A stretch of DNA of 63,667 nucleotides, filler included, from Octopus bimaculoides (lineage: Eukaryota): NCBI RefSeq assembly GCF_001194135.2. It is 7 parts of 6 records of this genome, joined end to end, with 100 filler letters (N's around TTAATTAATTAA, not from the genome) between each part and the next. Parts side by side here need not be neighbours in the genome. Positions count along the whole stretch, not along the records: positions 1 to 18,924 come from NC_068985.1; positions 19,025 to 38,846 come from NC_068990.1; positions 38,947 to 48,356 come from NC_068986.1; positions 48,457 to 55,099 come from NC_068982.1; positions 55,200 to 58,900 come from NC_068985.1; 2 more parts are not named here. One strand, 5' to 3'. Shown piece after piece: positions 6,484 through 57,818 of the stretch; the stretch's first letter is position 1; the number at the start of each line of letters is the position of its first letter. The position numbers and the translations under genes are program-made. The notes under the pieces are model-generated. The model made no database searches. It worked only from the letters and a program-made list of their open reading frames with translations, and was not told the origin of the DNA.

Positions 6484-6545
6484 AGAGTGACCCATGGTTT
6501 CACATTCATGAAGGCTGTAGCCTCATGGACGACTCATCAGACTCT
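6484..6545 (-). ncRNA. Type-I hammerhead ribozyme motif in a PLE pLTR (core intact)
   Basis: Minus strand: AGAGT-CTGATGA-[GTCGTCCATGAGGCTACAGCCTTCATGAATGT]-GAAA-CCATGG-GTC-ACTCT. Stem I AGAGT/ACTCT is perfect, stem II is a long hairpin, stem III has palindromic CCATGG, and the cleavage triplet is GUC. Confidence 0.75.
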
Positions 6546-7857
6546 AAAGCTGAAGACAATTCTCCTCCTCTGAGAGGCAGAAATCTGTTACAGTCATTGG
6601 TCAATTGGTCATCAAAGAATAAATAATATGGTGACAATGAGGATGGCATATCTCCCTTAGACCAGTTATTTGTGGGCTGGGAGAGGAGGAACAAGGGATT
6701 TTTCCCTTGGACTACATTTGGATCGTAAGAACCCTTCCAGGCTTAGCCAGAGAAGGGGGAATCCCATGCTTGTAGCAGGTAGTGTTTGAAATGGATGCAG
6801 GAGCTGAAAATTTCTTGGCAAGTATTCAGTGACTCAGGTTTCAGGGAGTCTTTGAGTATCCTTGCTTGCTCAGCTGTGCAAAGCTTGCAGCGTATGCTCC
6901 TGTTTATACAGGGTCACTTGATATCGTATGGTATCTGTTTATCTTTGAGGCACCACACATGGCTGGCTGGCTGGGGGTGTGATGAATCATCTTTCCAAAA
7001 CCCTGAAGGAGGACCTGTGGGTGTACAGGCGTCACTTGAAGGCCATCTCATATATTTCCAGGCTTGGGTGTTGGTTGCACTCACATTATTAGTGCATTTT
7101 TGGTTGGCTCCAGGCCTGGAGATGTTGTTGTTGCTGCCATCAGTACTCTTAAAATTACAATGCATGGGTCTAGCAATACTGTTGTGGCTGTTGTGGAGAT
7201 CATTCCTGGCTGTAGCTGGTGCTGGGGTCATTGGCATCAGTGCTGGTGTTTCTGCCACTGTCACTGCCTCTGATACCGTCAATGTTGCTGGATGATCTGT
7301 TGCTGCTATTACTGTGACCACTAGGCCTGGGTATCAACACAGCCTCATAGATGACTCCCTTGGTCTCGCATTGGACAGTCATTATACACTCTGCAAGAGC
7401 AACCTGCCTCCTCCCATGTTTTATGGGAATTTGCTAGTATACTTTACATATTGGGTGCACAACTAAATGAGACCCTTAGGTTGTGCCTAAGAGTGGCCAG
7501 GACCCTACATCAATGGGAGCATACACTACAAGCTTTGCATAGCTGAGCGAGCAAGGATACTCAAAGACTCTCTGAAAGCTGAGTCACTGAATACTTGCCA
7601 GGAAATTTTCAGCCCCTGCATCCATTTCAAGCACTACCTGCTGCAAGCGTGGGATTCCCCATTCTCTGACTAAGCCCAGAAGGGTTCTTACGATCCAAAA
7701 GCAGCCCAAGGGAAAAATCCCTTGTCCCCGCTCTCCCAGCCCACAAATAACTGGTCTAAGGGAGATAAGCCATCCTCACTGTCACCAGACTATTTATTCT
7801 TTTAATGACCAAGTGACCAAATGACCATAACAGAAGTGAAGAGTTGTCTTCAGCTTT

Positions 7858-7908
7858 AGAGTCTAATGAGGCTACAGCCGTCATGGATGTGAAACCACTG
7901 GTCACTCT
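7858..7908 (+). ncRNA. Degenerate hammerhead copy in the inverted pLTR
   Basis: AGAGT-CTAATGA-GGCTACAGCCGTCATGGATGT-GAAA-CCACTG-GTC-ACTCT. G5 is changed to A and the 5' half of stem II is deleted relative to 6484-6545. Confidence 0.6.
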
Positions 7909-8323
7909 ATGACTGGACATTAACTTAATTACTTTAATATANNNNNNNNNNNNNNNNNNNNNNNNNNNNNNNNNNNNNNNNNNNNNNNNNNNNNNNNNNN
8001 NNNNNNNNNNNNNNNNNNNNNNNNNNNNNNNNNNNNNNNNNNNNNNNNNNNNNNNNNNNNNNNNNNNNNNNNNNNNNNNNNNNNNNNNNNNNNNNNNNNN
8101 NNNNNNNNNNNNNNNNNNNNNNNNNNNNNNNNNNNNNNNNNNNNNNNNNNNNNNNNNNNNNNNNNNNNNNNNNNNNNNNNNNNNNNNNNNNNNNNNNNNN
8201 NNNNNNNNNNNNNNNNNNNNNNNNNNNNNNNNNNNNNNNNNNNNNNNNNNNNNNNNNNNNNNNNNNNNNNNNNNNNNNNNNNNNNNNNNNNNNNNNNNNN
8301 NNNTGGGCACCAGCCAGCCTAAA

Positions 8324-10025
8324 GCTTGGGGTGGGCTGCACCTGCCTACCTGAAAAAGGAAGGTGCAATCCCTTATCCTGAGTTGCACAAGCATGACTTG
8401 CCTTATGATGGCCAACGGCCTGAGGAAAAACTTGGGAAGTTGGAATGTGGGCAGTCTATATGGAAGGGGAACTGAGGTGTGAGAGGAATTGAGAAAGAGG
8501 AGGGTGGATGTGTGCTGTGTGCAGGAGGTTAGGTGAAGGGACCAGGGTGCAAGATTTGTGGGGGTCAAGGGACGAAGGTACAAGTTGTGGTGGTCAGGGG
8601 ACTGGAGGGAAGGGAATTTTGGTGAAGGAAGAAATCTATGAGGTGGTGGAGGTCAGGAGAAAGAGTAACAGAGTGATGACAGTAGTGTTAGCATTTGAGG
8701 AAGAAGTGATGAGGGTGATTTGTGGGTGTGGTCCACAAAGTGGAAGAGGGATCGCTGAGAAAGAACAGTTCTTTGAAGAAATGATGAATGAGTGGGACTT
8801 ATAAAAGCTAGATGAATTGGTTTGGGGCATGGGTGGGGAGAGACAAATTTGGAAGGAAGGATGCTGTTGGAGTTTTGTGATGAGAAAGAGTTGTGTTTGG
8901 CAAATACGTGGTTTAGGAAAACAGAGAAAAGGAAGGTGACTTTCAGTGCAGAGGGGAATGAGACAGAGATTGATTTTGTGTTGGTTGGCAGGAAAAACAG
9001 AAAGTACCTGAGAGATGTGAAGACAATACTAGGGGAGTTGCAGCACAGGTTGGTTGTTGCTGACTTGGATAAGAAGGAAGTTTAAAAAGTGTGTGAGAAA
9101 GGGAACTGTTGAGAGGAGAAAGGTGTGGAAACTGTAGGAAGAAGAAACGAGAGCAAGGTTTGAGGAGAGAGTTGGGAAGTTGGTAAGCACTGATGCACCG
9201 GATTTGTAGAAGTCTTCTAAAGAAGGGGTACTAAAGGCATGTGATGAAGTGTGTGGAAGGACGATGGGTAGGAGAGATCGAGGAGATATGTGATGATGGA
9301 ACAAGGTGCGGAATGCGATAGTGAGAAAGGAGGCACACAAAGCTTTATGTAATAATGGGACTGAGCAAACGAAAGCCAGGTATAATAACATGAAGAATCA
9401 TGCAAAGAGGCTGGTTGCGAGATCTATGAGGAAGGTTGAGCAGGATGGATGAGAACCCAGATAGAGTGTTTAGGTTTAGTAAATCAATGAAAAATGATGG
9501 AAGAGATGTTAAGAGAGGAAGATGCATGCAGAGGAGTGATGGTAGGCTGAATTTTAGTGAGAAGGACAGGGGAAGAGTTTGGAAGGAACATATGGAGGGA
9601 ATTATGAATGAGGTGAATGAATGGGATCAAAGGGTGGAAGTTGCTCTGGTGAAGAGGGTTAGTCGGGAAGAAGTAGTGGAGGCAATGAAGGAAATGAAAA
9701 CAGGAAAGGCAGCTGGTCCATCAGAAATAAGTGTGGAAATGATAACTGCAAATGGAGAGATTATTGTGATGATGGAGCTCTACCAGGGTATGCTGGATGG
9801 AAGAGGAATGCCAGATGATTGGGCACTAAGTGTGGTGGCACCAATCTTTAAGAGGAAGTGGGATGCAATGAATTGTGGGGTGTATAGAGGAGTGAAGTCA
9901 TTGGAGCATGCAATGAAAATAGTGGAAAGGATGTTGGAGAGGAGAATTCGGAAAGGGATGGATGTGGATGAGATGAAATTTGGTTTTATGCCAGGAAGGG
10001 GGACAATAGATGCAGTGTTCACCAT
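8324..10025 (+). mobile_element. RTE-clade LINE remnant (AP endonuclease plus RT N-terminal part, 3'-truncated)
   Basis: GSWNVGSL...DVCCVQEVR, GKGILV, VICGCGPQSG, NTWFRK, TEIDFVLV, then GKAAGPSE, DWALSVVAPIFK, YRGVKSLEHAMKIVERMLE, FGFMPGRGTIDAVF. Multiple stops. Confidence 0.88.
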
Positions 10026-10351
10026 CACTAGTGATCACTCCAAACACCATGATGTTGACTAGATGTTTGATTTTTATCACTCTCAGTACATGTCCTCAGG
10101 TTGCACTGTCCTCAGATTGACACCCAAACACTCTGAAATGTTCATATTGGAGCTTCTGGGGCAAATGCCAAGCAGCACAGCATGTCGTTTCCAAATTACT
10201 GGGAGAGTGAATTGCGTCATGGTGCTGTTTTTCTCACAGATGGTGCTCAACAGACCCTACTATTCTGTGTAGTTGACAAAATTAAAAACAAACACTGTGC
10301 ATGCGCGAAATTAAAAGAAATATAAAATGGTGACAATTTACCCATTGCACC

Positions 10352-10401
<50 letters not shown>

Positions 10402-12000: not shown

Positions 12001-12051
<51 letters not shown>

Positions 12052-27974: not shown

Positions 27975-28580
27975 AGGAGGAAAGAGGTAGGTTGCGGGAA
28001 GATGTGCAAGGCGGAGGGGTCAGACTGTTGTCGCCGGAAGGTTCAGAGAATAGTGCGTTGGAGAGGCAGGGTGGAGGGGTGGTAGGTGCGGGGAAACGAG
28101 AGACGGGTTAACGGTGGAGGGGGTGCGGGGAAAGAGAGAGCAGAAGCATGGTCCACGGAACGTGCTCTGGTAAGGGCGGTGTGGATAGTGGTGAGGCGAT
28201 ATCCACGAAGGACGAAGTGGCGAGCCATGAGTTGAGACATGGTTGTCACTGCAGAGCCTGCGCAGAAGGAGGAGGAGTTGGGAGCTTGGTATGGGTAGAA
28301 TGGGAGAAGGAGAAGTTAAGGAAGGATAGTGATTCGGTGTTTGTAGTGGATGGAGGTAGTGAGAACGAAGTGGTGTATGCTAACAGAAATATGGAGGAAT
28401 GCGCAAGATGGAAAGATTGGACAAAAGTGCAGAGGAAATCTAATTGTTCGCGGTAGACTGATGTCGCGCCGATACAGTCATCCGTATAACGACCGTATAG
28501 TTCGGGAGTGGGAGCAGTGAATCGTGAGAATATTTGGGCCTCTACGTAACCAACGAACAGGTTCGCATAGTTGGGCCCAT
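27975..28580 (-). mobile_element. Penelope-like reverse transcriptase C-terminal remnant
   Basis: GPNYANLFVGYVEAQIF...GRYTDDCIG (YxDD), SLSFL, MARHFVLRGY..TIHTALTRAR, RTYHP: PLE RT motifs 5-7 and thumb. Confidence 0.85.
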
Positions 28581-28589
28581 TCTTTATAT

Positions 28590-28805
28590 ACTCTTTTACT
28601 CTTTTTACTCTTTTACTTGATTCAGTCATTTGACTCAAGAACACTCTCCAGGATACACACGACACGCTTCTTTCAGTTTCCGTCCACCAAATCTACTAAT
28701 GAGGTTTTGGTCGGCCCGTGGTTATGGTAGAAAACACTTGCCCAAGGTGTCACGCAGTGGGACTGAACTCGGAAACATGTGGTTCGAAGCAAGCTTCTTA
28801 TTACA
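28590..28805 (-). mobile_element. SINE family B (internally deleted copy)
   Basis: CTTTTACTTGATTCAGTCATTTGACT...CACTTGCCCAAGGTGTCACGCAGTGGGACTGAAC. Confidence 0.75.
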
Positions 28806-31590: not shown

Positions 31591-31749
31591 AAATAACTTA
31601 GAGAAGCCATTTTCAAGTGAGAATTAGGTTAAAGACGGAAATAGCAGAAGGAGAGTAAAGACAAGGGAGATAAGCAGTTTGTCGAACTAGGATTATCGTC
31701 CTTGGCAGCGATTCACTTGTTTACGAAATCGGAATTCTAAACACAAAAT

Positions 31750-31993
31750 ATGTCTTTGGTAGGTTATGGTTCCAGTGATAGTAGCGGCAGCAGTGATGAA
31801 GAAGATAACCATCTACCCCCATCAGGTGAACAAAAGAGAACCAATGCTGCCAGTGGTGTGTCTAAAATTGAATCTAAACCTCAGAATGGTATGGAAGAAC
31901 AGCAAAAGGCAATAATTAACGGCACCAAATCGGACAATGTTTCTGTTGATGACGAAGAGGAAGACGGCCTACGTGGAAATAATTTGTTTAAAG
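31750..31993 (+). CDS. PRCC: PRCC (proline-rich mitotic checkpoint control factor) orthologue, coding exon 1
   Basis: MSLVGYGSSDSSGSSDEED matches the PRCC start MSLVAYASSDES. Ends NLFK+G with donor AAG|GTAATA, phase 1. Confidence 0.85.
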
Positions 31994-33963
31994 GTAATAT
32001 GCGTTATGTAATATGGGTCTGTTTCTGTTTAAATACGACGCTCTTTGTTTGAAAAAGAGGGAGATCTTTTATGGAGAAATTTAATTTGTTTGAAATCGCA
32101 GATAAATATTTCTGAAATCGCACTCTGTTGTTTTATAAATAATAAATAATAAATAACACATCGGACAATGTGGTCTTAAATACAGAATATTTAAAACAAA
32201 CAGAAAGCAAAAAATATATAGGATAGACTTAGTTTACACGCTAATGACAATATGTTTGTGAAATCAGGGCTAATCTTCAGGTACAAAGCGAAATTAAAAG
32301 CACTGACACAGGAGAATAACAATGACAACAATATATTATACATACATATGAGTATTATAAAACATTCTGGCTCAGTCCTTGAAATTCAGCTCGTTACGAA
32401 TACATAGATATTGAAGCAATATTCTAAAATATATTTGATCATAAGTTTGCTTAATTAAAGCTGAACTCGGGGCTAAACACCCGCAACAACAATAACAACA
32501 ACCGATACATATTTTGTCGTCTTCGGAAAGTATGGAAGAGTTATAAGTGACTTCGGTTGGATTTGAACTTACAGTTAGGCGAAACTAAATACTATCTGCC
32601 CTATGACAGTTTATTTCAGTTATTTAATCTCATTAAGATAATAATAATTATGATTTTCTTTTACGCATATACTCTCCATTAAAAAATCTGATTTGTTTTA
32701 GAAGATCATAAAAGAATTGAAGCAGTGGTAATTTGAAACCACGTCAAGTGGGTTGTTGAATTGTTTTGGCGAAGTTTTGGAATAGCTTATCTCTACTTGA
32801 TGGGGAAGGAAAAACACATAGAACTGAATATTGTTATTTTATTCTATGTTATTTATTCCTGTGTTTCATACAACGGAAATTACAGTTGTGAAAGAACCCC
32901 TTCCTCCCCATAAATTGTTACTTTTCTTTACATTTTTACTCCTCCCGTAATCTCGTGCTATATTCATTCTTTCCTCTTTCCCCGTGAAATAACGACGTTG
33001 GCTATATTTCAAAACTCTGCCATCGTTTTCGTTTCTTTTTTGGAGAGCTGCTCCGTCTAAGGAACTGATTCTGCCCCCCCCCCACACCTCCTTAGAATAA
33101 GTGTAAGGTGAACAACTTCGATGGACTGTTTAAAAGTTCTTTGTCCTTGTCCCCACTTCTCGAAACACATCTATTTTTTTCCATATTTAATATAACGGGA
33201 CGAATATTAACAATATTATCAGAATGGAATTTCCTCTACGTCAATTTACTCCCCAGCCACTTTGCCACGAATCATAGAACGTGGGTCCTTCGATGTTCCT
33301 TACATTTTGCTTCCTGTAAATAAAGAAAACAATTTTGTTAAAAGATTGGTTGCTATTCTCTAAATAAAAGTTGTTCCCCTTCGATGAACGTGGACATTGG
33401 GGTGATGGTAGTAGGGGTATGTTGGACAAAATGCATAATGTCATTTGCTCTGCTTTTTTACATTCTGAACGCTCAGTTAAGTGTGGCAAATTTGTCTACA
33501 TTTGTTATTAACTTCAGATCTCTCATCAAACGTATCCCAGCAGTGATAACTACATCGTATATTCAGGCTCATTGCATCTAGGATTTTTGTTTAAGACGGT
33601 AGAGTGTGATGTAAAGAAGGTTTTGTTGCTACTTCTAGCGTGTTGATCAACCATGTGGAGGTTCCAACATTCGTTCATGTTATTGTAAGTGTTGTTGGGG
33701 ATGCAGTGTTGATGTTGATGGAAGTTAACTCATATCTGAGTACGACCACTTCTTAGACACAGATAAGCACTTACCAAAGTGATAAGCACTTACCAAAGAA
33801 GACATAACTGCACAGGATGGCCTGAGAATTGCAACTGCTCTATCTATTCTGTACCTGCTGCATGCTCTCAGGAATACAGAAACTACAGAAGTAGTGGTTT
33901 TCATTGTTGCCAGAAGTTTGCTTATCTAATTTAGACCTTTATTATTCACACGGTGACATTTAT

Positions 33964-34138
33964 AAAGCACCCAGCACACTCTGTTGAGTGGTTGGCTTTA
34001 GGAAGGGCATCCGGCCTTAGAAACCATGCCACAACAGACAGTTGGTGTCTGGACAGCTTCCTGCTAACCAGCTCCATGTCAAACCATCCAACCCATACCA
34101 GCATGGAGACCAGATATTAAAGTGATGTTGATGATGAT
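33964..34138 (+). mobile_element. Family A RTE-tail/SINE, older copy, PRCC intron 1
   Basis: GGTTGGCTTTAGGAAGGGCATCC...CCAACCCATACCAGCATGG...GATGATGAT tail. Confidence 0.75.
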
Positions 34139-34154
34139 TTGTTTCTCTATTCAA

Positions 34155-34430
34155 CATCATCATCAACATCATCATCGCTTAACGTCCGCTTTCCATGCTA
34201 GCAAGGGTTGCCCGATTTGACTGGGGACTGGCAAGCCAGAAGGCTGCACCAGGCTCCAATCTGATCTGGCAGAGTTTCTACAGCTGGATTTCCTTCCTAA
34301 CGCCAACCACTCTGAGAGTGTAGTGCGTGCTTTTACGTGTCACTGGCATGGGGGCCAGTCACACGGTACTGGCAATGACCTCGCTCAAAAGGTGTTTTTT
34401 ACGTGCCACCTGCCCGGGAGCCAGTCCAAT
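34155..34430 (-). mobile_element. Family A RTE-tail/SINE, PRCC intron 1
   Basis: (CAT)n-CGCTTAACGTCCGCTTTCCATGCTAGC...TCCTAACGCCAACC. Confidence 0.85.
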
Positions 34431-34759
34431 GTTGGCTGATATTTCTTACAGGCTCAGTCAGACAAAAAGCTTTGAGCGTATTTTCTGAATTCACTCCCTA
34501 CATTGGTTAACTTTAATTTTTCTTATCCTTTCAAGGTCGATAAATAAATTACTATTCTGGTGGACTGAGGGAGTCATTTGAGGATTGGACTGATTGCCAT
34601 GTGGTATTTGTTCTGCTTCTTTGCATGCTGAGTTCAAATCCTGCCTTATTGGGGGTGGGCATAACACTCTCCTCCCCACTTCCTGATTCTTCAGTACCTT
34701 CAGCAGTATTCTGGCCCACAAGTTTGTCGTCTCTTCTCTCTCTGTCTTTCATATCCCTA

Positions 34760-34985
34760 CTATAATGGCCTCTGCTCTTTGGAGCTGGCTGGTCTTGTAC
34801 CTACCTCTACCACCCTTTCCACTCATCTCTCCACCTTTTGGTAGCCTAGGTTTCTCTACCAACTGCTCTATCCAATCCTTCATCTCCAGAACATTTGCCT
34901 TCTGGAATCCGTTCCCTGCTCACATATTTCTTTCAGCACTTTAAGAAGAATATTAACAATATGAATGTCACTGATCTTTGAAGGA
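34760..34985 (+). mobile_element. LINE 3' fragment (CR1/L2/Jockey-group-like)
   Basis: NGLCSLELAGLVP...SFISRTFAFWNPFPAHIF resembles the SF.PRT..LWN.LP C-terminal motif of APE-LINEs. Confidence 0.4.
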
Positions 34986-35261
34986 CCGCATGGGTCATGA
35001 GCTTTGCTTCTTCCTCCTGACTCAGCAAATAAAAAAGAAAATCACTATTTGGGCTGGGGTCTCCAGTTTGGGTGTACCTTCTTCCTGCCTATTTTTTCTC
35101 TTGTTTTGAGGCCCTGTAATAGGTACTGCTCCTTTACCAAAAGCTAAAAAATTAAAAAACAAAAACTAAAAAAAGAAACTAAAAGAAAAAAACAAACTAA
35201 ATTACATTTGAACCATGATGAAGTCATGTGACTTTAATATTTCTTTATTTCCATTTGACAG

Positions 35262-35425
35262 TTCTACCAAAGCCGCAGCAGAAACAAACAACGAATGATG
35301 AAATATCTGAAGGAGATCTGGAAGATATTGTCAAACCAAAATCTTCGCAGATAACAAGTTTACCAAAACCTTTACCATTGCTAAAAGGTTCTCATGTGAA
35401 AATCACTATTCCGGCATTGGATTCA
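35262..35425 (+). CDS. PRCC: PRCC coding exon 2
   Basis: Acceptor TTTGACAG|, donor TCA|GTGAGT. (V)LPKPQ...SLPKPLPLLKGSHVKITIPALDS. 164 nt completes the phase-1 codon and ends in phase 0. Aligns with PRCC LPKPKKRKEPVKIAAP. Confidence 0.85.
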
Positions 35426-35601
35426 GTGAGTTTAGAGTTTTTAAAACTTTTTTACTCCTTACTATAAAACTCCACCTCTCTCTCTCCCTCTAACTGCCAC
35501 ACCTTGGATGTGTTACTTGATCAAATGACAGAAGAGTGAAGAATTGTATCTGTGTCTGCATGCAACTATATAGGTGTCTAAAACAAGTACAAGTCATGGT
35601 T

Positions 35602-35958
35602 CGGGATGGCACCTGTGCCTAGCGTCGCCTTTCTGGCACTTGTGCCCGTGGCATATGTAAGGATTTTTGAGCGAGATCGTTGCCAGTGCCCCTGGACTGG
35701 CTCTTGTGTGGGTGGCACATAAAATACACCATTTTGAGCATGGCTGTTGCCAGTATCGCTTGACTGGCCTTCGTGCCGGTGACACGTAAAAGCACCTACT
35801 ACACTCTCAGAGTGGTTGGCGTTAGGAAGGGCATCCAGCTGTAGAAACTCTGCCAAATCAGATTGGAGCCTGGTGTAGCCTTCGGGTTCCACCAGTCCTC
35901 AGTCAAATCGTCCAACCCATGCTAGCATGGAAAGCGGATGTTAAACGATGATGATGAT
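35602..35958 (+). mobile_element. Family A RTE-tail/SINE, PRCC intron 2
   Basis: About 355 bp ending AAACGATGATGATGAT. Reverse complement of 37673-38033. Confidence 0.9.
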
Positions 35959-36298
35959 ATATAGTTTTTGGCGAGTATGTGGGTGAGCATGTGTGTGTTT
36001 CAAGCGAGGGTGGTTTAGTATATACATATAGGCGAATGTATGGATTGGTGCGTTTACGCGAACACTATAGACTTTTCTACTCCCTTACCTTTACCCCTTC
36101 CCCTTACTTAGCGGTCATTCTAATAGCTCTTTTGTCTTAATAACGGTCAACCACACAGTAATTTCCCTTTGTTTAACGGTCATTTTTCACAGGAATTTTC
36201 AATGGCTGGATAACTGAAGAGATGTTGGCGTGGACTCCCACCCCGGCATCCAAAACTCGGAGTTTTATCATGGCTACCAAATAAGTGTCTCATATTTT

Positions 36299-36349
<51 letters not shown>

Positions 36350-36774
36350 ATGATTGTATTTAGTTTCAGTTTCTTTTCAATCTACCAAATTCACTCACAA
36401 GAATTTGGGGCTATAGTAACAGGCATTTGCACTATGCAGTGGGACTGGACCCCAAACTACATACTACATGGTTTGGAGAAGTGAATTTCTCTATCACAAA
36501 CCCTGTTAGTAACTAGTTGACCCCGTGGATATTACATGCTTAAATTAGAAACAGCCACCAAGTATCAAAGATCAATGTGGCATTCTAAGTTCAAATCTCC
36601 TGAGTTCGCCTTTGCTTTTTCTCTTTTTGTGGGTCAGTAAAATAAGTACCGGTCAAGCACTGGAGTTGGTGTAATTGACTTAACCAATACCCTTGAAACA
36701 TTTCTGGCCTAGTACCAAAATTTGAAAATTGTTATTATTGTTCTTATTAAGTGTTATTATTTTGATAATTTCAG

Positions 36775-36822
36775 GATTCAGATGAGGAAGAAGTGGTTAC
36801 AAAGAAAAAAATGAAGTTCTCG
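36775..36822 (+). CDS. PRCC: PRCC coding exon 3 (48 nt)
   Basis: TTTCAG|GAT...TCG|GTGAGT. DSDEEEVVTKKKMKFS matches PRCC DSDSEEDEPTKKK. Phase 0-0. Confidence 0.85.
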
Positions 36823-37004
36823 GTGAGTTTTATTTATTTGCTTACTTAATAGTCATCTCAAAATCAATTACATTTAATTTACTATTAATCTGTTATAAGT
36901 TTAACAAACTTTTATGTTTTATGTTTAAGTTTAATGAACTTTATATGACTTCTGTAATTTCTATTTCTTAATTATTTGATTATTTCTCTCTCATATATTT
37001 AAAG

Positions 37005-37463
37005 GGCAAATGCCGTTTGTTGGATATCCTTCCTCCCCCGAAACACATTTCTGTGAAACAAAGCAACCGGACATTTATACCCTACACCCTAAACAAAAGA
37101 CCCGAAGCAGCAGAAAGTGCAACAAAGAAACCCCCGTCGAGTTCCGTATCGAAGAAGCCAGCAGTTAAGAAAAGTATCCTTGGTGTAACTGGTTATAACA
37201 GCGATGATGATGATGACGATGATGACAGCAATGTCAACAGTTCAAATTTTTTCTCTCTGGACTCAAAACCCCAAATACCCCGACAGACAGGCGGATCATT
37301 CACCCAACCCTCAGCCACCATTTCTTCTACCATCACTTCTACTTTCCATTCCCTTTCTTCCATTCCTTCAGTTCCTTGGCAACAAACTACAGTCTCTCCA
37401 CATGTGCCATCTGCCACTGATGTCATGGAAAAGAACTACGCAGAATATTACGTGCAGCCTGAA
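37005..37463 (+). CDS. PRCC: PRCC coding exon 4 (459 nt)
   Basis: TTTAAAG|GGC...GAA|GTAAGT. LLDILPPPKHISVKQSNRTFIPYTLNKRP matches PRCC LSALLPQPKNLTVKETNRLLLPHAFSRKP. Acidic run plus NFFSL is conserved. Phase 0-0. Confidence 0.88.
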
Positions 37464-37500
37464 GTAAGTAGCTTTATTTCAACTTTAATTCTGGTGTAGT

Positions 37501-37535
<35 letters not shown>

Positions 37536-37544
37536 CAACAACAT

Positions 37545-37671
37545 TGAAAATACCTTAGGAATGAAAACCCAGGTTCGAAATTTCCCCCAGACGCCTGATG
37601 AAGGCTGGAGGGTATATCAGCCGAAACGTTGTGTAACAACAAACAAGATGAGGACAAATATCCGTCAAATG
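37545..37671 (+). mobile_element. Short (~125 bp) hammerhead-bearing PLE-type repeat, PRCC intron 4
   Basis: Near-identical reverse-complement copy at 39668-39795. Sits between (AAT)n and (CAT)n. Confidence 0.75.
37590..37635 (+). ncRNA. Minimal type-I hammerhead ribozyme motif, sense to PRCC
   Basis: ACGC-CTGATGA-A-GGCTG(GAGGGTATAT)CAGCC-GAAA-CG-TT-GTGT. Stem I ACGC/GTGT, stem II GGCTG/CAGCC, palindromic AACGTT, GUU triplet ending at 37630. Confidence 0.72.
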
Positions 37672-37672
37672 T

Positions 37673-38033
37673 CATCATCATCATCATCGTTTAACGTCTG
37701 CTTTCCATGCTAGCATGGGTTGGACGATTTGACTGAGGACTGGTGAAACCAGATGGCTACACCAGGCTCCAATCTGATTTGGCAGAGTTTCTACAGCTGA
37801 ATGCCCTTCCTAACGCCAACCCTTCCGAGAGTGAATTGGGTGCTTTTACGTGTCACCGGCACGAAGGCCAGTCAGGCAGTACTGGCAATGGCCACGCTCA
37901 GAATGGTATATTTTATGTGCCACCCGCACAAGAGCCAGTCCAGGGGCACTGGCAACGATCTCGCTCGAAAATCCTTACACATGTCATGGGCACAAGTGCC
38001 AGAAAGGCGACGCTGGGCTCAGGTGCTATCCCG
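37673..38033 (-). mobile_element. Family A RTE-tail/SINE, PRCC intron 4
   Basis: Reverse complement of 35602-35958. The same spurious ORF is read on opposite strands in the ORF track. Confidence 0.9.
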
Positions 38034-38218
38034 ATTTTGCTTTCGCTTAAAAATGTAAATAATAAAATATATGCCGTTTGTTTCTAAGTTTAAAACAACA
38101 TTACTCAGTTGTCTACTCCACTTCTATTGTAAGAAGCACTCTGCGGATTATGTGTTGTGCATCTTCTACTCATTCTTAAATATTCATGATTAATTGTTTT
38201 CACACCTTTGTCTTGCAG

Positions 38219-38320
38219 GAATTAGTACAACCAGACCAGGACCGTTTAGCAACTCCTGATGATGATCCTGAGCTTGCCGGTCCATCTATGAACATTGACA
38301 CACTTCTTCAGGATGAACAG
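38219..38320 (+). CDS. PRCC: PRCC coding exon 5 (102 nt); gene continues beyond the visible exons
   Basis: TCTTGCAG|GAA...CAG|GTAAGG. ELVQPDQDRLATPDDDPELAGPSMNIDTLLQDEQ. Phase 0-0, no stop codon. Confidence 0.75.
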
Positions 38321-38440
38321 GTAAGGTGGTGGTTGTATTTGTGTTGCTCTTGTGACGAACATATTTGTTAATGAAAATATAACACAAATGATTATGACAA
38401 ATGTCTTGCCATGTTTATTAGAATTTTATCCCTTTTGATT

Positions 38441-38790
38441 CATCATCATCGTCGTTTAACTTCCGCTTTCCATGCTAGCATGGGTTGGACGATTTGACTT
38501 GGGGGACTAGCGAACCAGATGGCTGTAACAAGTTCCATTCTGATCTGGCAGAGTTTCTACAGCTGGATGCCCTTCCTTACGCCAACCACTCCGAGAGTGT
38601 AGTGGGTGCTTTCATGTGCCACCGGCATGGGGGCCAGTCAGGCAGTACTGGCCACGGCTACGCTTGAAATGGTGTGGCACTAGCAACGAGCTCACTCAAA
38701 TGTCTTTACACGTACCACCAGCACAAGTGTCAGGGAGGCGACGTTGGTAATGATCGACGGCCACGCTTGAAATGGTGTTCAACGGCCACG
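38441..38790 (-). mobile_element. Family A RTE-tail/SINE, PRCC intron 5
   Basis: (CAT)n-CGTTTAACTTCCGCTTTCCATGCTAGCATGGG...GGATGCCCTTCCTTACGCCAACC. Confidence 0.85.
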
Positions 38791-39667
38791 CTAACATAAA
38801 CTTTTTTTTAAAAGTAATCCCATTCCTTGTGAGTGGAAAATGGTAANNNNNNNNNNNNNNNNNNNNNNNNNNNNNNNNNNNNNNNNNNNNTTAATTAATT
38901 AANNNNNNNNNNNNNNNNNNNNNNNNNNNNNNNNNNNNNNNNNNNNTAGATATGTGTGTACATGTATATGTGTATATGTAAGCATTATATATACTTTTAT
39001 GTAAACTTTGGTTCTTCCTCTTTGAGGATTCTATCACACGTTTCTATACTGTGTATACCATTTTCTGTCTCTGCCCACCTACCCACTTCCTCAATCACCC
39101 AATTCCTATGTTAACTCCTACATTTTTTGCAGCCTTTTCTTCCAATGTTTCTCCCATTTCCCTAGTGGCAATAAAACTTGCGGTATGTTCCGGTTCTTTA
39201 TGTTCTGAGTTCAAATCCTGCCGAGGTCAACTTTGCCTTTCGTCATTCCATAGCCGAAAAAATAAAGAACAAGTGAAGTATTGGGCTCGATATAATTTAA
39301 TGTACCCTTCCCCACCAAATTTCAGGCCTTGTGCTTATATTATCATTAAGCAAAAAACAATCGCACCAAGGTGGACTCTGCTTTCCTTACCTCCGAGGCT
39401 GATAGAATCAAAATACGAAGCACATACTGGGATTCCCCAGTTGTTTAGCCATGTGCATTCTTTTGGGGTGGTTAAAATAAAGTTCCTGTTAAGCACTGTA
39501 GTTGACTTACTGCCTCGTCTTAGATTTGCCGACCTGGAGCCAAACTTTGAGACTTTCATCATCATCATCGTTATTATTATTATTGTTTTTACTTTCAATC
39601 TGCATCTTTGTTACAGTCACTTGACGAAGCACACCCAGCGTCCTGGGACGAGTGAAGGATAAGAAAT

Positions 39668-39795
39668 GTTACATTATTTACATTATTTACATTTGACGGA
39701 TCTTGTTTGTTGTTAACACAACGTTTCGGCTGATATACCCTCCAGCCTTCATCAGGTGTCTTGGAGAAATTTCAAACCTGGGTTCTCATTCCTAC
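39668..39795 (-). mobile_element. Second copy of the short hammerhead-bearing repeat
   Basis: Reverse complement of 37545-37671, with a short (AAATAATGT)n tandem tail. Confidence 0.75.
39715..39760 (-). ncRNA. Minimal type-I hammerhead ribozyme motif
   Basis: Minus strand: GACAC-CTGATGA-A-GGCTG(GAGGGTATAT)CAGCC-GAAA-CG-TT-GTGTT. Stem I GACAC/GTGTT. Confidence 0.72.
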
Positions 39796-39796
39796 G

Positions 39797-39885
39797 GGCA
39801 TATGACGTAGTTGTTAAGAGCGCGGGCTACTAACCCCAAGATTCCGAGTTCGATTCCAAGCAGTGACCTGAATAATAATAATAGT
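39797..39885 (+). mobile_element. Short tRNA-derived SINE with (AAT)n tail
   Basis: A-box-like TAGTTGTTAAG and B-box GAGTTCGATTCC, followed by AATAATAAT. No complete acceptor stem. Confidence 0.65.
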
Positions 39886-40699: not shown

Positions 40700-43450
40700 A
40701 AGATAATGATAAAGAAGCAATCATAATGTTCGATAACGAAACGCGCACCTTCAGAAATTTTGAGAACAATGAAAGAAATGGGAATGTTAACACCGAATGG
40801 TCTAAACTTAATGACGTCTCTGGGGTTAAAAAATCTTTTGTCTCTAAACAACATCAAAACTTTAGGAGTCAACAAAGAGAACACCAACAGCAACAGCAGT
40901 AACAGTGACAACAGTGGCAGCAGTGACAGCAGCAACAACAACAATAACAACAATAAAACAACAATAATAACAGCAACAACAACACGAAAGAAATAAAACA
41001 TATAAATGCAAATATCGCCCGTTTCTTTTGCGTCAGAAAATGCTCCCAAGTGAGAAGTTAAAAAATGCCTTGGGTGCGTGTGGGAACAAAAGACCCACAT
41101 CACCCGAGGAAAGAAGTTTGGAACCATTGAGGTGAGATTTGGTGCGGAAGAAGCTAGATGTAATTCCGCAATCACTTTGAAGAATGACAACTTTCTCTTA
41201 ATCTCCAGCTATTGCGGCCAACGTCTTGCTAAGATTAGGGTGCTGAATGTGCCGCCAGAAATATCCATTACCTGGTTAGTGACGGCTGTCTTGGCAGGTT
41301 TAGAAGACGAAGTCATAATACTGGAGGTCAAAAACTACCTAAGCAAGACTGGTTAGGTATAGGTATGGAACTGACCTTGCAATGCAAGCAGGACCATATC
41401 GACCAGCTGCCCGATCTAATCGATCTCCCGGGTCGCACTCACCTGTCAGTGTTCGTGGAGGGTAGAAAGCCACGATGCCATAAATGTGGATCTGTAAAAC
41501 ACTTACAGGTTTCCTACGCTAAAACAAAGAAAATGAAGTCTCACCGCAGCCAACAAGTGCTAAATCATAAACAAGTGCATAAGACTTTAGCACCTTCTCC
41601 CACTCCCAAACCAAGACAATGAAGGAGTCTACTCCCCGGTTTCCACAGAAAAGCAAGCTTCTCCTGAATGCTCTTCCTCCCAAACGAATTCTATGTTTTC
41701 ATGCCAGATTTGTTTGACAGCCACTTGGCATATGTCTACAGTAACCTGGTCGGGGAGGCACAAACGTGCCCAATACCAAGCAGGTCTATCCACGGCAACC
41801 TCCACCTCAAGCTGGCTTCGGTGGAGCCTTGATCAATTTAAATCAGTCTAAATCTTTCGATAAGGTAGACCATCGCTACTTGGAAGCCGTCCTTAAAGCG
41901 ACTGGTTTTGGACTCCTTATTAGAGGTGGATTGTTGCAATGCACAGCGGCACCTGCTCGGTGGTCAAAGTAAATGGCCACCTATCGGAACCGTTTTGTAT
42001 GGCATGTTCGGTACGTCAGGGCTGCCCGCTGTCACTTCTTCTGTATGTGCTGGCTCTCGAGCTGCTGCTGCGGAAGATGGAATAGTTAAGAGGCATTCCT
42101 TTCAAAATTGAACTCGGGAGGGCAGTGTCTGCATACACGGACGACGTTACCGTCATGGTGTCGGACGCCTCCGAAGTGGTGACGGTCGGCCCCATTGTAA
42201 AGGAATATGAGTCGGTCGCAGGGGTTAAAATCAATGCCGACAAGNNNNNNNNNNNNNNNNNNNNNNNNNNNNNNNNNNNNNNNNNNNNNNNNNNNNNNNN
42301 NNNNNNNNNNNNNNNNNNNNNNNNNNNNNNNNNNNNNNNNNNNNNNNNNNNNNNNNNNNNNNNNNNNNNNNNNNNNNNNNNNNNNNNNNNNNNNNNNNNN
42401 NNNNNNNNNNNNNNNNNNNNNNNNNNNNNNNNNNNNNNNNNNNNNNNNNNNNNNNNNNNNNNNNNNNNNNNNNNNNNNNNNNNNNNNNNNNNNNNNNNNN
42501 NNNNNNNNNNNNNNNNNNNNNNNNNNNNNNNNNNNNNNNNNNNNNNNNNNNNNNNNNNNNNNNNNNNNNNNNNNNNNNNNNNNNNNNNNNNNNNNNNNNN
42601 NNNNNNNNNNNNNNNNNNNNNNNNNNNNNNNNNNNNNNNNNNNNNNNNNNNNNNNNNNNNNNNNNNNNNNNNNNNNNNNNNNNNNNNNNNNNNNNNNNNN
42701 NNNNNNNNNNNNNNNNNNNNNNNNNNNNNNNNNNNNNNNNNNNNNNNNNNNNNNNNNNNNNNNNNNNNNNNNNNNNNNNNNNNNNNNNNNNNNNNNNNNN
42801 NNNNNNNNNNNNNNNNNNNNNNNNNNNNNNNNNNNNNNNNNNNNNNNNNNNNNNNNNNNNNNNNNNNNNNNNNNNNNNNNNNNNNNNNNNNNNNNNNNNN
42901 NNNNNNNNNNNNNNNNNNNNNNNNNNNNNNNNNNNNNNNNNNNNNNNNNNNNNNNNNNNNNNNNNNNNNNNNNNNNNNNNNNNNNNNNNNNNNNNNNNNN
43001 NNNNNNNNNNNNNNNNNNNNNNNNNNNNNNNNNNNNNNNNNNNNNNNNNNNNNNNNNNNNNNNNNNNNNNNNNNNNNNTGAGAGGGAGGTGCTGTCCTCG
43101 AGTGAATTTATGAAAAGGTGGCTGAAAGTTGCGAAAATGGCAAGTGTGGATGGTACCAAACTCAGTGTAGACCTGTGAGTCTGAAGAAAGGAGTTGGAGT
43201 GGGCTCTCATTCTTGGTACTCAGGGTGATCCTGGATGGTGGGGTTCCTTGATTATACCTAGAGGTCCTCCTGAATCAGGATCCTCCCCCCCCTCTTTTTC
43301 TAGTGTGGTATACTATGTATACTTCCCTTCTTCTAATGTATACCGTGTATAATCTTTATTTTATCATTCCATTATATGCAAACCCCTACTCTTTATGTCT
43401 GTCTTCGTATTGTCCCCCCTCATCCTTCTCCCTAGCAGCAAATAAAAAAA
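40700..43450 (+). mobile_element. Tx1/L1-group non-LTR retrotransposon remnant (ORF1 zinc knuckle, RT, 3' UTR, poly(A))
   Basis: RVLNVPPEI; VFVEGRKPRCHKCGSVKH (knuckle); GALINLNQSKSFDKVDHRYL; RQGCPLS; SAYTDDVTV...KINADK; after the gap ER..LSSSEFMKRW* and AAATAAAAAAA near 43440. Endonuclease region missing. 5' boundary approximate. Confidence 0.78.
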
Positions 43451-51084: not shown

Positions 51085-51149
51085 GTATATATGAATATAT
51101 GATATGCTTTGTTTTACTCCTACTGCTTGCATTTTGCATTCTTGTAGTT

Positions 51150-52243: not shown

Positions 52244-52300
52244 TTAAAGTGGGAGCCGTGTTATCGTATATGATATACGATAATACAGCTCACATTTTAA
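52244..52300. repeat. Isolated 27-bp inverted repeat (hairpin, 3-nt loop)
   Basis: On the + strand the arms give 23 Watson-Crick pairs, 2 G-T pairs, 2 mismatches and no bulges. Confidence 0.85.
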
Positions 52301-53031: not shown

Positions 53032-53076
<45 letters not shown>

Positions 53077-53629: not shown

Positions 53630-54080
53630 GGTGTTAAAGGCGAGTTAGACGAAGTGAGTTAGACGAAGATGTCCTTCTTTTTGCTTCTTGCCGTGATGGG
53701 ATTTCATACAATTTTTTCTAGTGCTTTTTTATCGTTTCCTCATTTACACCTAGTACAACTCTTAAGTTCTTTGGCAGGATGTAACACCGTTGTGGACCCC
53801 TGAAAACCTAGACATTGCAATAGTAGTTCTCTGTCTGAGATTAAAATGACGGTATCTTCGTTATTATGCAGAGAAGTCAAATTTGGTGGTTGGTATAGCT
53901 CTTAATTCCAAAGTTGGGAGCTGGGCTTTCTAGGATCTTCTATATGCATATTACTGCATACCTTTCTAGCCTTTTCTCCATGGAGTAGAGCTTCAGTTCT
54001 TGTAGCCTCTACTAGTAGCTCAGCTGTTTCACCGAGTCAATCTTCTGTATGCAGTGGCGCTGGATTGGCTAATGTTCCGC
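53630..54080 (-). mobile_element. CR1/L2-group LINE 3' fragment
   Basis: IQRHCIQKI...LSY*...LQELKLYSMEKRLERYAVI...KILE..PNFGI...GFQGP...ILPKNLR resembles the CR1-type C-terminus. Confidence 0.7.
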
Positions 54081-54711
54081 CATTTATCCCTAATTATTTT
54101 ATATCTTTAATTTATCCCTAATTATCTGATCAAGTAGTCAGGTTTAGATCAGAAATATTTCCTTCCTCACCTGATATTTTTCACCCATCGGGAAATATTT
54201 TCATTATGAAACAAAATATATAAAGCAAAATACCGCAACATATTTATTTTACCTCTTTTAAAGCTATGTTAAAAACAACCATCTCTCTATGTGATCTGTG
54301 ACACATTTTATTGCGTTTAAGTTGTCGTTCAGTTTAAGAAGCCTGCAGATTGATAACCGTCCTTTTATTTAGAAACTCTTAGTTTCAGCGTCAATGGAAG
54401 TATCATTTCTTGCGATGAGAAATTATTTCATGCTGTATAACTTTCATTATATGCCTAAATATCAAAATTCGCACAACTCGTATAAATCACTGTTGAACAA
54501 TCCATTTCCCTATATATCCTGTGATACACTTTTTTGAGTGTGAATGAGTCGACTGTTGATCTGTATTTCCATGCGTTTGTCGCAGATTACAAAGTGCATG
54601 AATAAGCAAAATACATAGCTCACATTAATTAAACAGCAATAAACTTGAATGACAAATCAATGCATTGCATAGATATTTCCGCTTGAACATTTCGCTTAAA
54701 TATATACATAA

Positions 54712-54739
54712 CTAGCAGAAATACCCGGCTTTGCCCGGG
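54712..54739 (-). mobile_element. Helitron 3' terminus
   Basis: Minus strand: CCCGGGCAAAGCCGGG hairpin, TATTTCTG, CTAG|T. Confidence 0.65.
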
Positions 54740-56974
54740 TTAAAGAGAATAATGAAATCTAAAAACGCTGTCTAGACTACGCAACCCTCAACTGTTAGTA
54801 GCTACGATACCATATTTCTACATTAATAACTCTCCAATCCATGCCAGTATGGAACATAGACATTAAGTGGAATGCCAGTCTCTCATCTAGGAGGGCCTTG
54901 AAATCAATGTTACCAACTGGGGATTATGTGTGTCGCAGTGATAATAAAAAAGACCCAAAGGAGGCCTGCAACGAAATAATTTTACTCAACACTTTGCAAG
55001 TGAATCAGTGAAGGCAAATATGCGTCTCATTTATTTGACAATTTATGCACCACATTGCAGAAATCACAATGTAAGTATATCTGAAAGGGTAGTCTTACAN
55101 NNNNNNNNNNNNNNNNNNNNNNNNNNNNNNNNNNNNNNNNNNNTTAATTAATTAANNNNNNNNNNNNNNNNNNNNNNNNNNNNNNNNNNNNNNNNNNNNT
55201 CCGATCTTATATATATATATAAACCCAACACTTTGTAATTAATTTATAGTTACAATAGGGCACAAGAGATACAAGCACTGCTGTAAAAATCAGAGTCGAA
55301 AATTTCTCTAAAAAGACCAACAATCACTGGAAATGTAATAAGCACAACAGAAATTTATTCACCATCTCGGCAGAAAACCAAGCCGTAGAATGAGAAAAAT
55401 AGTTACCCCTGGATCAATTGATTTCGAATTTTGTGAGTTAATCTCCCTTAATTCTCATTAGTTTATCTCCATCAATTCTCATTGCTCGTTTCGCTGTACT
55501 TGGCCACCGTTGAATAGCTAATACCAAATTAATAAACGGTGTCACTGTATAAAATTACTAAATGGATAAATATTCAAAAATATTTATATAGATATTATCA
55601 TTAATAAAATGAATAGTGGCCAGCAATCAAAAAGGCTGGTAAATGGCAAATCACAAATTTTATAAAGCTATAAAAGAGTACAGGAGGTGCCAGCATTTTT
55701 ATGAAAATCAAAGTCTAAAATCCTCTACTTACATATATGTACTCATTTATAGTATATCTATCTATCTTGTTAGCTAAGTAGTAGTCTATATATATATGTG
55801 TGCGTGTATGTGTGTATGTGTGCCTGTCTGTCTGTCTGTCTGTGAGTGCGTGTGTACATTTCTAGACAGATAGGTAGATAGATAGATGCTTGCAGTACTC
55901 CTGTGATTTACAAGCCGCTAGCTAATTATACTTCTCAATTCTTTTACTTAAAATTTTGTAATTTCCATATTCCTATACCAATTAAAAGAATAGTTACCTG
56001 GAGCTTGATAACTGCTTTAATATTTTTATCCGTTTTGATGCCAATCTTTCGATAATCTACATTTACCTCTCTTGTTTTCTAATTCCTATCATAGATTCAG
56101 GTATCTTTCCGTCAATTCGTTGATTAATTCAACTTTTCAATCTTCGCTTCGATATTCATGATGTTGAATATATTCCTGTAAAAGTGAAATCCCTGAAAAG
56201 AAGAAACAACTACTTTTGTTTCACTAAACTTTTAAATATTTCATCATCATAATTGAAATTAAAGACTATTATACTGTTCTGCATAATGTTCTATTATACT
56301 GTTCTATTATACTTGCTATTATACTGTTCAGCATAACGTTCTTCATCCTCGATCATATTTCAATTCATTTTTAAACGTTTCACTGAGTTATGGAGGAATA
56401 TTAAACGCGGTGTTGTATATTAAAATTAGATGCATTAAATTATTCTGTCGTTGTTTAGTAATTTCTTTTTAGACAGTAGTCAGGCATGCTTAAATAAACT
56501 TTTGAAAATCGTTTCAGCTTAAACAGTCCTTACTGTTATGCAGATATGAAAAGACCTAATATCACGTCATCAATTGTTCTAGTTTTTACAGCTGTAATCT
56601 TTAATTTCAAGTTTATTTCGATACTGTTATCAGCAGTCAAGTAGCCACTTAGATATCTTCAATAATACTTCGCTTGCAGAAATTTTATAAACATCCATTG
56701 AATAAATAGTATTGATATATATATATATATAAATTATATTTAGGATAAAAAGAATCTATTTAATGTATAGATGTTATTGTAGTGTGCACTAGACCTTCCG
56801 TAGTTTCACTTTTCAATTATGTGACTACGAATAAAAAAGGTAAAAATAGTGGTACAAGCCTCTCAGCATCCTCAAGTACTTTAATGCTAGAAAGCTTGTG
56901 TGAAATGATGCCTTTTAACGGATCCGTCTTTTTCTTTTTTTTTTTCTCCTCTTCCACATATGCAAATTCCGTAG

Positions 56975-57630
56975 CACCAGCTTTCGTCATAGTGATGACC
57001 TTCGAAAAAAGATCCGGATCGAATTCCAGCTGTTCATTCAGTTCGTGACATGCATTAAGTCGTGACTGCATTGATCTGTCCGTGAGCAAGTAAGACACAC
57101 ATTTTGACGTAACACTTCATTCGCAATTCCTCGTTAAAAATTCGTTGCCAGGAGCTCAAGGACACACCTGTCATATCAACAAGTTCGTCAATTTTGATGT
57201 GACGGCCTCGAAGATCAGTTCATGAATGTTCGTGATATTTTCATTAGTTCGAGAGGTCGTCGATCATTCTGAACGAGGTTGGTCCTTAAGCGACAAGTGA
57301 AGATTCCTAAAGCATGCAAACCACTCGTAAATTTGTATTTTTCCCGTGGAAGCATCCTTGTAAGCTGTTTAAAGCATGAGAACTGTTTCGGCAACCGTTT
57401 CTCCAGCTGAAAACAGAATTTCACGGAAGCACGCTGTTCCTTCGTTTCAGCCATCGCGAAAATCGACGAACAAGCACTGCAAAACATAGACACACCACGC
57501 GGCAGTACGAGTCCAGCGTTCGATGCCTGATATTTGCATCAAGTGTCTTCTAGCGGCGGAAATCTGAACTACAATAGGTTTGTACCACAGAGAACGTTTC
57601 CGGTTAATTTAATTTTGGGTACCCCTCGTA
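56975..57630 (-). mobile_element. Mariner transposon 5' half (one TIR)
   Basis: Starts TACGAGGGGTACCCAAAA on the minus strand. EQRASVKFCFQL..; LT..MQSRLNACHEL.EQLE.DPDLFSKVIT(G)DESWCYG, then breaks off. Confidence 0.85.
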
Positions 57631-57781
57631 TCATTCAGATTAATTGAAGTACAACCACCCAAACTCTCTCTCTCTATATATCTATATATATGGGAGAATA
57701 TACAAATAATAACAACAGACGAGGACAGGTGGTGTAAATAACAAAAGTATATATTAGTATGACGCTCGGGAATACGGAAAG

Positions 57782-57818
57782 TCTTTGACGTTTCGAGCTA
57801 CGCTCTTCAACAGAAAGA
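57782..57818 (-). ncRNA. Minimal type-I hammerhead variant (A6 to U) in a short PLE-type repeat
   Basis: Minus strand: TCTTT-CTGTTGA-A-GAGC(GTA)GCTC-GAAA-CG-TC-AAAGA. Stem I TCTTT/AAAGA, stem II GAGC/GCTC, palindromic ACGT, GUC triplet. Confidence 0.62.

Follow-up and report, generated by a model that had tools for sequence, protein, structure and literature searches.

Minimal hammerhead ribozymes (min-HHRs) occur in the pseudo-long terminal repeats (pLTRs) of metazoan Penelope-like elements (PLEs). As described by Cervera and de la Pena in 2014 (PMC4209133; here and below, statements on a cited paper refer to the accessible portions of its text), they are characterized by an extra nucleotide after A9, a G10.1-C11.1 pair and a palindromic 15.2-16.2 segment. 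They are present in thousands of mostly single copies that belong to many unrelated families per genome, and their activity is low even in dimers. Octopus does not figure in the accessible portion of the supplement to that study (PMC4209133). Here, we analyze a stretch of 63,667 nucleotides of Octopus bimaculoides DNA (assembly GCF_001194135.2; 7 parts joined end to end, hereafter the window), animal DNA rich in repeats that includes 5,661 N. A previous reading of this sequence, the original prediction, had described six hammerhead motifs (motifs 1 to 6) from four unrelated families and regarded them as a mini-retroelement system of non-autonomous, retrozyme-like parasites of PLEs. In our judgement, it is probable that the six motifs are PLE-type hammerheads and that the repeat carrying motifs 4 and 5 is a short interspersed nuclear element (SINE) that is transcribed by RNA polymerase III (Pol III) and relies on a PLE protein for its reverse transcription in trans.

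Hammerhead Motifs of the Window

All six motifs were confirmed in the sequence, together with the stem I pairs that had been given for them; motifs 1, 3, 5 and 6 are located on the minus strand (6484-6545, 20799-20856, 39715-39760 and 57782-57818), and motifs 2 and 4 on the plus strand (7858-7908 and 37590-37635). Their attribution to the PLE type stands, as their form agrees with the published min-HHR consensus and motifs 1 and 2 follow a PLE endonuclease remnant. The CUGANGA core, which had been ascribed to all six, is found in three of them (motifs 1, 4 and 5), while the others carry one core change each: CUAAUGA (G5A) in motif 2, in which 11 nt corresponding to the 5' arm of stem II are also gone relative to motif 1; CUCAGGA (G5C) in motif 3, whose stem II is weak; and CUGUUGA (A6U) in motif 6, whose stems are perfect. 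Likewise, the short palindromic stem III exists as a loop-less ACGU in motifs 3 to 6, whereas motifs 1 and 2 possess the quasi-palindrome ACCA-N-(U/G)GGU. For the intermolecular duplex of the ACGU stem III, an energy of about -3 kcal/mol was computed. Motifs 3 to 6 possess both the G10.1-C11.1 pair and the extra nucleotide after A9, in agreement with the extra A that had been noticed in three families.

A strict descriptor (CUGANGA core plus stems I and II; 60 local dinucleotide shuffles as the control) matched two loci, motifs 4 and 5, versus 0.017 per shuffle (1 match in 60 shuffles). When one core mismatch was allowed, it matched three loci, with motif 6 added, versus 0.067 per shuffle (4 matches in 60, with a maximum of 1). 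A loose descriptor lacking stem II and allowing one core mismatch found eight loci, the six motifs and two unrelated ones, versus a mean of 1.16 and a maximum of 4 in 25 shuffles. Hence, the motif set exceeds the frequency seen in shuffled controls. Rfam reported no hammerhead, neither when the entire window was scanned nor in two shorter scans, and returned microsatellite noise only. As a set, the motifs are genuine, with half of them decayed, and motif 3 on its own is the weakest member. Since the motifs match hammerheads described for PLEs, the motif class and its density are already known and ordinary for an invertebrate genome.

Structure of the Repeat with a tRNA-Like Head and Motifs 4 and 5

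Motifs 4 and 5 belong to a non-coding repeat of about 250 nt in which a tRNA-like head is followed by an (AAT/AAC)n linker and then by a tail of about 140 nt that contains an intact minimal hammerhead in sense orientation. The unit of about 125 bp recognized by the original prediction is only the tail of this longer element, whose head had been overlooked. Copy 4 (37533-37672, plus strand) is a 5'-truncated hammerhead tail with 94% identity to copy 5 over 95 nt; it is preceded by a (TAA)n tract (37502-37532, plus strand) that represents the SINE linker and/or the target site, with no head upstream. Its hammerhead (motif 4) has an intact core, the extra A, a stem II of 5-6 bp and the ACGU stem III; the predicted cut follows position 37630, and the sequence behind the cut site is 62% A+C. 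Copy 4 is positioned inside an intron of PRCC (37464-38218) and has the orientation of the gene, and motif 4 lies in sense about 125 nt past the PRCC splice donor. A regulatory ribozyme of the host gene was considered and rejected; copy 4 is nothing special within the family, and one of its stem I positions is not the same as in copy 5.

The tail of copy 5 (39667-39794, minus strand) is inverted relative to the adjoining head, has a private 12-nt deletion behind 39699, and contains motif 5 with an intact core and a predicted cut between 39720 and 39719. The head itself comprises 75 nt (39796-39870, plus strand), with an A box at 39803-39813 that deviates in this copy by one mismatch from the search pattern, and an exact B box at 39848-39856; a G is found at 39805 and 39812 in more than 90% of the placed sequences. 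Behind the head follows an (AAT)n linker (39871-39884, plus strand), which in other copies leads to the hammerhead tail. On the sense strand of head and tail, no run of four T occurs, the longest T-run being three.

The usual arrangement of the element was deduced from a single placement of reads and contigs onto positions 39590-39884, using all contigs of the DNA runs X1 and X2 and about 6% of the reads of the RNA runs X23 and X24, with runs X19 to X22, whose share was small or zero, left aside; 15 of the 152 rows of joints and 40 of the 125 rows of variants are considered here, and the consensus of loose ends displays 30 letters of the sequence beyond each break. The six most-read joints are cross-strand and connect the end of the head (39878-39883) with the start of the tail (39792-39794). 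They are represented by 672 reads in X23 and 534 reads in X24, and are found in DNA contigs as well (1-8 per row where present). The loose ends past 39794 and 39883 enter an AAT/AAC linker that matches the sequence before copy 4. Together, joints and loose ends indicate that head-linker-tail, with the hammerhead in sense, is the usual form, that copy 4 is 5'-truncated, and that copy 5 is rearranged. In eight of the listed joints, each present in 1-3 contigs per DNA run, an inverted tail is fused to the start or the interior of the head. Because these inverted tails are cut at six different places, inversion arises anew at different insertions. The loose ends before 39670/39673 share one common 3' extension (571 and 564 reads) that is lacking in copies 4 and 5, and the 3' ends of these two copies show neither poly(A) nor the simple-repeat tail of a long interspersed nuclear element (LINE).

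At 39794-39796, loose ends and inserted letters suggest a head-to-head fold-back, with an inverted head 5' end, in many copies. The motif 5 pattern had no match in metagenome contigs, and the head pattern had none in prokaryote genomes. A scan of the window for other tRNA-like heads yielded eight loose candidates, none of which was followed by a hammerhead on the same strand.

Abundance and Sequence Variation of the Repeat

The family is very abundant. A total of 25,558 and 26,077 contigs were placed from the DNA runs X1 and X2, and 6,911 and 5,630 reads from the RNA runs X23 and X24 (0.05% of those read). When the contig depth, summed up, is related to that of long flank contigs, a ratio of 160,000-230,000 is obtained, which is not a copy number; further division by a worst-case overlap factor of 31 results in 5,000-7,400. 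No baseline can be derived from the left flank of the placed stretch, since this flank is also a repeat, of lower copy number. The number of copies can be put no more closely than in the thousands, the tens of thousands, or above. The very large genome-wide copy number that had been envisioned for the entire set was confirmed for the motif 4/5 family only. In each of the four runs, the peak depth of the head amounts to 0.60-0.68 of that of the tail, and tails thus exceed heads by about 1.5-1.6 to 1.

Four of the 40 listed variant rows (of 125) fall into the hammerhead: three are CpG transitions, of which one affects G12, and the fourth is a loop change. The CpG transitions account for 11-16% of the DNA depth and for 20-30% of the X23 reads. 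The core is kept in the majority sequence, and single genomic copies look unselected. A 3-nt deletion at 39721 that destroys stem III is present in 9% of the RNA reads of both runs and in 0.3-0.4% of the DNA depth; it likely stems from a few highly expressed copies. No back-joint was present among the 15 listed of 152 joint rows, and standard RNA-seq may miss small circles.

Probable Mobilization of the Repeat by a Penelope-Like Element

The copies of the motif 4/5 family bear marks of the PLE type, namely tails that are inverted and truncated, a 3' extension in part of the copies, and sites in microsatellites, and these favor mobilization by a PLE; inverted pLTRs and an optional tail of 30-40 nt are known PLE features (PMC3846280; PMC8969392). 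By analogy with the anole PLE Poseidon (PMC11167929), the tRNA-type promoter of a master copy would drive transcription. The pLTR-derived tail of the transcript would be bound by a PLE protein, and both DNA strands would be nicked at ATT-rich sites; Poseidon cleaves both strands at ATT, and its tail has been called unique to PLEs (PMC11167929). Reverse transcription would begin downstream of the hammerhead at one of two alternative sites and thereby produce copies with or without the 3' extension; in the anole PLE, two internal reverse-transcription starts within an AC-rich stretch downstream of the hammerhead delimit the tail (PMC11167929). Priming on both strands would generate the inversions. 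The hammerhead was likely inherited within the recognized pLTR, and its cleavage would require either a dimer or the help of a protein. The anole hammerhead cleaves only with protein and is dispensable for insertion in vitro, and no RNA-seq ends were found at its cut site (PMC11167929). Most genomic copies of the octopus repeat are likely inert and would decay neutrally.

A number of observations weigh against this PLE-driven SINE. The RNA reads of X23 and X24 reveal neither a discrete SINE transcript nor cleavage: they are equal on both strands, have the same head:tail ratio as the DNA, and neither their starts nor their ends pile up at any position, including the predicted cut site. This pattern points to passive transcription within host RNAs, and the read counts may be dominated by a few expressed loci. 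One of the conditions under which the original prediction would fall, a lack of stem covariation, is borne out in part: no compensatory stem pair was present in the motif 5 span among the 40 listed of 125 variant rows. Furthermore, the tRNA assignment of the head derives from its A and B boxes, with ARAGORN detecting no tRNA genes and Rfam no tRNA match to the head; the order head-linker-tail is displayed by neither copy in the window and is known from reads of other copies; and the 3' extension is known from its first 30 letters. The ends of the copies sit in microsatellites, and target-site duplications are therefore unreadable. An autonomous PLE sharing the tail of motifs 4 and 5 was not found within the window, and twin priming of the L1 type also produces inversions.

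Four other explanations have to be weighed against mobilization of the SINE by a PLE. Head and tail might be two independent repeats, one of them an ordinary tRNA-derived SINE with (AAT)n at its end, the other a mini-PLE in the form of a solo pLTR, which prefers ATT microsatellites and repeatedly landed in the SINE end. Such nesting would fit the ATT preference of the PLE endonuclease (PMC11167929), the headless copy 4, the excess of tails over heads by about 1.5-1.6 to 1, and the opposite orientations of head and tail in copy 5. We nevertheless consider it unlikely: at least 672 of about 2,100 X23 reads at the head end (39870-39879) reach the tail within 150 nt, and they do so in one orientation and through one linker (loose-end agreement 0.68-0.75), a frequency and uniformity that is not expected from nesting. 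Alternatively, a SINE might have captured a piece of a pLTR once and then been mobilized by a LINE, with the hammerhead as a passenger. SINEs normally use LINEs (PMC8969392), no selection on the hammerhead is visible, and the partner PLE was not found in the window. Yet, copies 4 and 5 are devoid of poly(A) and of a simple-repeat LINE tail, and the inverted truncated 3' pieces and the optional 3' extension are PLE marks, so that capture by a LINE-driven SINE appears to us decidedly improbable.

The retrozyme-like nature advocated by the original prediction would imply short units that are amplified as tandem or circular RNAs freed by self-cleavage of the hammerhead. The hammerhead is indeed intact in the majority of the family, and retrozymes have been argued to derive from PLE pLTRs, with many of them being monomeric (bioRxiv 10.64898/2026.07.22.740005). 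Against such a nature stand the lack of tandem hammerhead units in the window, of a back-joint among the 15 listed of 152 joint rows, and of read ends at the cut site, as well as the single hammerhead per unit without a stem III and a Pol III-type head that lies outside the retrozyme definition; we accord it very little probability. Chance matches in AT-rich repetitive DNA, to which the missing Rfam match and the yield of the loose descriptor (about one match per shuffle and two unrelated matches in the window) could be taken to point, are scarcely credible as a general explanation in view of 2-3 strict matches versus 0.02-0.07 per shuffle, the fit to the published consensus, and the position of motifs 1 and 2 behind a PLE endonuclease. 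For motifs 1, 2, 4, 5 and 6, a chance origin is refuted by the shuffles, the consensus match and the PLE context; for motif 3 alone it is possible. Of the proposed non-autonomous PLE parasites, the analysis supports one non-coding, very high-copy family, that of motifs 4 and 5, for which dependence on a PLE is likely; a single system made up of the four families, or a retrozyme-like nature of them, is not supported.

If a SINE-PLE partnership indeed replaces the textbook SINE-LINE pair in this family, it would constitute a new host-parasite pair. The tail would then represent a cis-acting signal of about 140 nt for reverse transcription by a PLE, a natural minimal substrate that reveals the cis requirements of the PLE protein. 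The purpose of the PLE hammerhead would become testable as well, since one can ask in thousands of copies arranged in dated subfamilies whether successive master copies have preserved the catalytic core more faithfully than the loop, or whether subfamilies with a dead core have spread equally.

Penelope-Like Element Remnants and Motifs 1, 2, 3 and 6

Remnants of PLE open reading frames (ORFs) are present at three loci of the window, as revealed by tblastn with 152 proteins. At the locus of motifs 1 and 2, the 3' part of a Hydra-clade PLE ORF (6743-7488, minus strand; best E 6e-12) encodes the thumb, a CxCX5C linker and a GIY-YIG C-terminus, according to tblastn and translations; it is interrupted by stops and frameshifts and ends with the stop codon 6743-6745. 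Motif 1 is situated 198 nt past this stop codon and is a Hydra-type hammerhead with an intact core and a long, bulged stem II, as judged by comparison with File S2 of PMC8557442. A second, inverted and 5'-truncated copy of the same PLE 3' end (7497-7939, plus strand), which ends with TA before an assembly gap, was detected by self-BLAST and tblastn. The inverted repeat (6453-6915 versus 7501-7939) displays 84% identity in self-BLAST. Motif 2, located 185 nt past the stop codon, is a decayed copy of motif 1 that carries the G5A change and the 11-nt stem II deletion. Pieces of thumb, linker and endonuclease were matched by tblastn at 7488-6719 (minus strand) and 7497-7658 (plus strand). The marks of the Hydra clade are a CxCX5C linker and an endonuclease end with CxxC and CxH (PMC8557442), and the locus has both the CxCX5C linker and, at the C-terminus, a GIY-YIG with CxxC and CxH. 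The reverse-transcriptase part, in which the clade has the motifs RWK and DKT, is missing here; the long homologue P0087 has both motifs. Pfam did not recognize the PLE remnants of the window, and gave sub-threshold GIY-YIG and RVT_1 matches on two of six homologues only.

Judged by these sequence features, motifs 1 and 2 are part of an ordinary dead Hydra-clade PLE insertion with a head-to-head inverted copy. Like described PLEs of this clade, they combine a hammerhead in the 3' region with an inverted 5'-truncated copy and a TA terminus (PMC8557442). Their stem III, ACCA-N-UGGU, is that of the hammerhead listed for Hydra-1_oBim (PMC8557442 File S2), whose stems I and II are unlike theirs; because of this difference, motifs 1 and 2 represent another, decayed family. 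The lack of coding sequence that the original prediction stated for three copies is therefore wrong for motifs 1 and 2, which follow PLE ORF remnants, and a common mini-element system for all six motifs has to be rejected, since these two form the 3' end of a decayed coding PLE.

A second decayed Hydra-clade PLE 3' end with thumb, CxCX5C and GIY-YIG lies at 21973-22903 (plus strand; tblastn E 9e-39 versus an 806-aa protein), and no hammerhead was found behind it. With its fragment 22553-22900 as the query and an E of 0.001, a full HMMER search retrieved 2,588 relatives (150 of them listed); a word-based protein search with the 22553 fragment found none. Opposite to this remnant and just upstream of it, a possible decayed hammerhead (about 21806-21865, minus strand) has CUGAAGA and two stems; as GAAA is absent, it was not counted as a seventh hammerhead. 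A PLE reverse-transcriptase fragment of another lineage (28202-28692, minus strand) exhibits 44% identity to P0001.

Motifs 3 and 6 each occur as a single hammerhead within the window, beside microsatellites and without an ORF, and a coding PLE partner was found in the window for none of motifs 3 to 6. Motif 3 is a decayed minimal-hammerhead-like sequence, and the 140 nt further downstream of it recur at 21427-21566 beyond an assembly gap. The direct repeat 20624-20766/21427-21569 (97% identity) that flanks this gap is either a true tandem or an assembly artefact. Motif 6 is part of a unit of about 130 nt flanked by (TA)n tracts (57690-57818, minus strand; single copy in the window) and has a perfect stem I of 5 bp, a perfect stem II of 4 bp and the ACGU stem III. 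Its pattern had no match in viral contigs and one in metagenome contigs; this one fell in a coding region of bacterial type that has no hammerhead stems, and we dismissed it as a chance match. An A6C change strongly lowers Mg2+-dependent activity and leaves Mn2+-dependent activity in place, with A6U going unmentioned in the accessible portion of that study (PMC7151607). If the A6U core turned out to be family-wide, motif 6 would offer the same test of ribozyme function as the motif 4/5 family. Motifs 3 and 6 probably represent solo pLTR stumps left by two additional PLE families; they may also be further mini-elements.

Other Features of the Window

The PRCC exons extend over 31741-38320 (plus strand), and exon 36996-37463, the sole exon matched by the search, shares 90% identity with the Octopus sinensis PRCC. 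An abundant short repeat starting with (CAT)n occurs in both orientations (3608-3792, 33951-34428, 35601-35958, 37672-38034, 38440-38675), and one of its copies adjoins the 3' end of copy 4. Remnants of an LTR-type reverse-transcriptase/integrase region and of two LINE-like ORFs are found at 15109-17289 and 2876-3223, at 9430-10062, and at 41054-42245.

Comparison with Described Hammerhead-Bearing Repeats

In the accessible literature, no SINE was encountered that is dispersed, has a tRNA head and carries the hammerhead of a PLE in its tail, a result that does not extend to Repbase, Dfam and most subscription papers; the accessible portions of PMC8967140, PMC6962438, PMC10294476, PMC6685494 and PMC5753468 contain none. 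Among the repeats of octopus, SINEs form the principal class (PMC8967140), and the motif 4/5 family may already stand in Repbase or Dfam under a plain label. We see about an even chance that this family is a very high-copy tRNA-headed SINE with the 3' half of a Penelope pLTR and an intact minimal hammerhead, mobilized by a PLE, and that it has so far been undescribed.

Motifs 3 to 6 resemble the min-HHRs in their loop-less stem III and their stem I of 4-5 bp, and fit the consensus save for the core changes in motifs 3 and 6 (PMC4209133); they differ in that the A6U of motif 6 is absent from the cores listed in the accessible portion of that study, which likewise describes no tRNA-type head for min-HHRs (PMC4209133). 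The schistosome Sm-alpha and Sj-alpha repeats are, like the octopus repeat, short and non-coding and combine a Pol III-type promoter with a type I hammerhead (PMC6765202). They are, however, often tandem, their multimeric transcripts have been shown to cleave (PMC6765202), and their motif is canonical (PMC4209133), whereas the motif of the octopus repeat is of the PLE type without stem III, and the repeat itself appears dispersed and bears PLE insertion marks. Non-LTR retrozymes are also non-coding and hammerhead-bearing, and have been proposed to be PLE-derived and PLE-dependent; in contrast to the octopus repeat, they are defined by tandem units and circular RNAs, and no tRNA head is reported for them in the accessible portions of these studies (PMC7229834; bioRxiv 10.64898/2026.07.22.740005). 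Retrozymes have been called a possible type of SINE that maybe relies on PLEs (PMC8969392), and a hammerhead family of Drosophila willistoni that forms tandem arrays was labelled 'SINEs' (PMC4209133 supplement). With tRNA-derived SINEs, the octopus repeat has in common the A and B boxes, the short length, the lack of coding capacity, the dispersion and the great abundance; it differs from those with a LINE tail in that its own tail is a PLE-type hammerhead end, and its likely partner a PLE.

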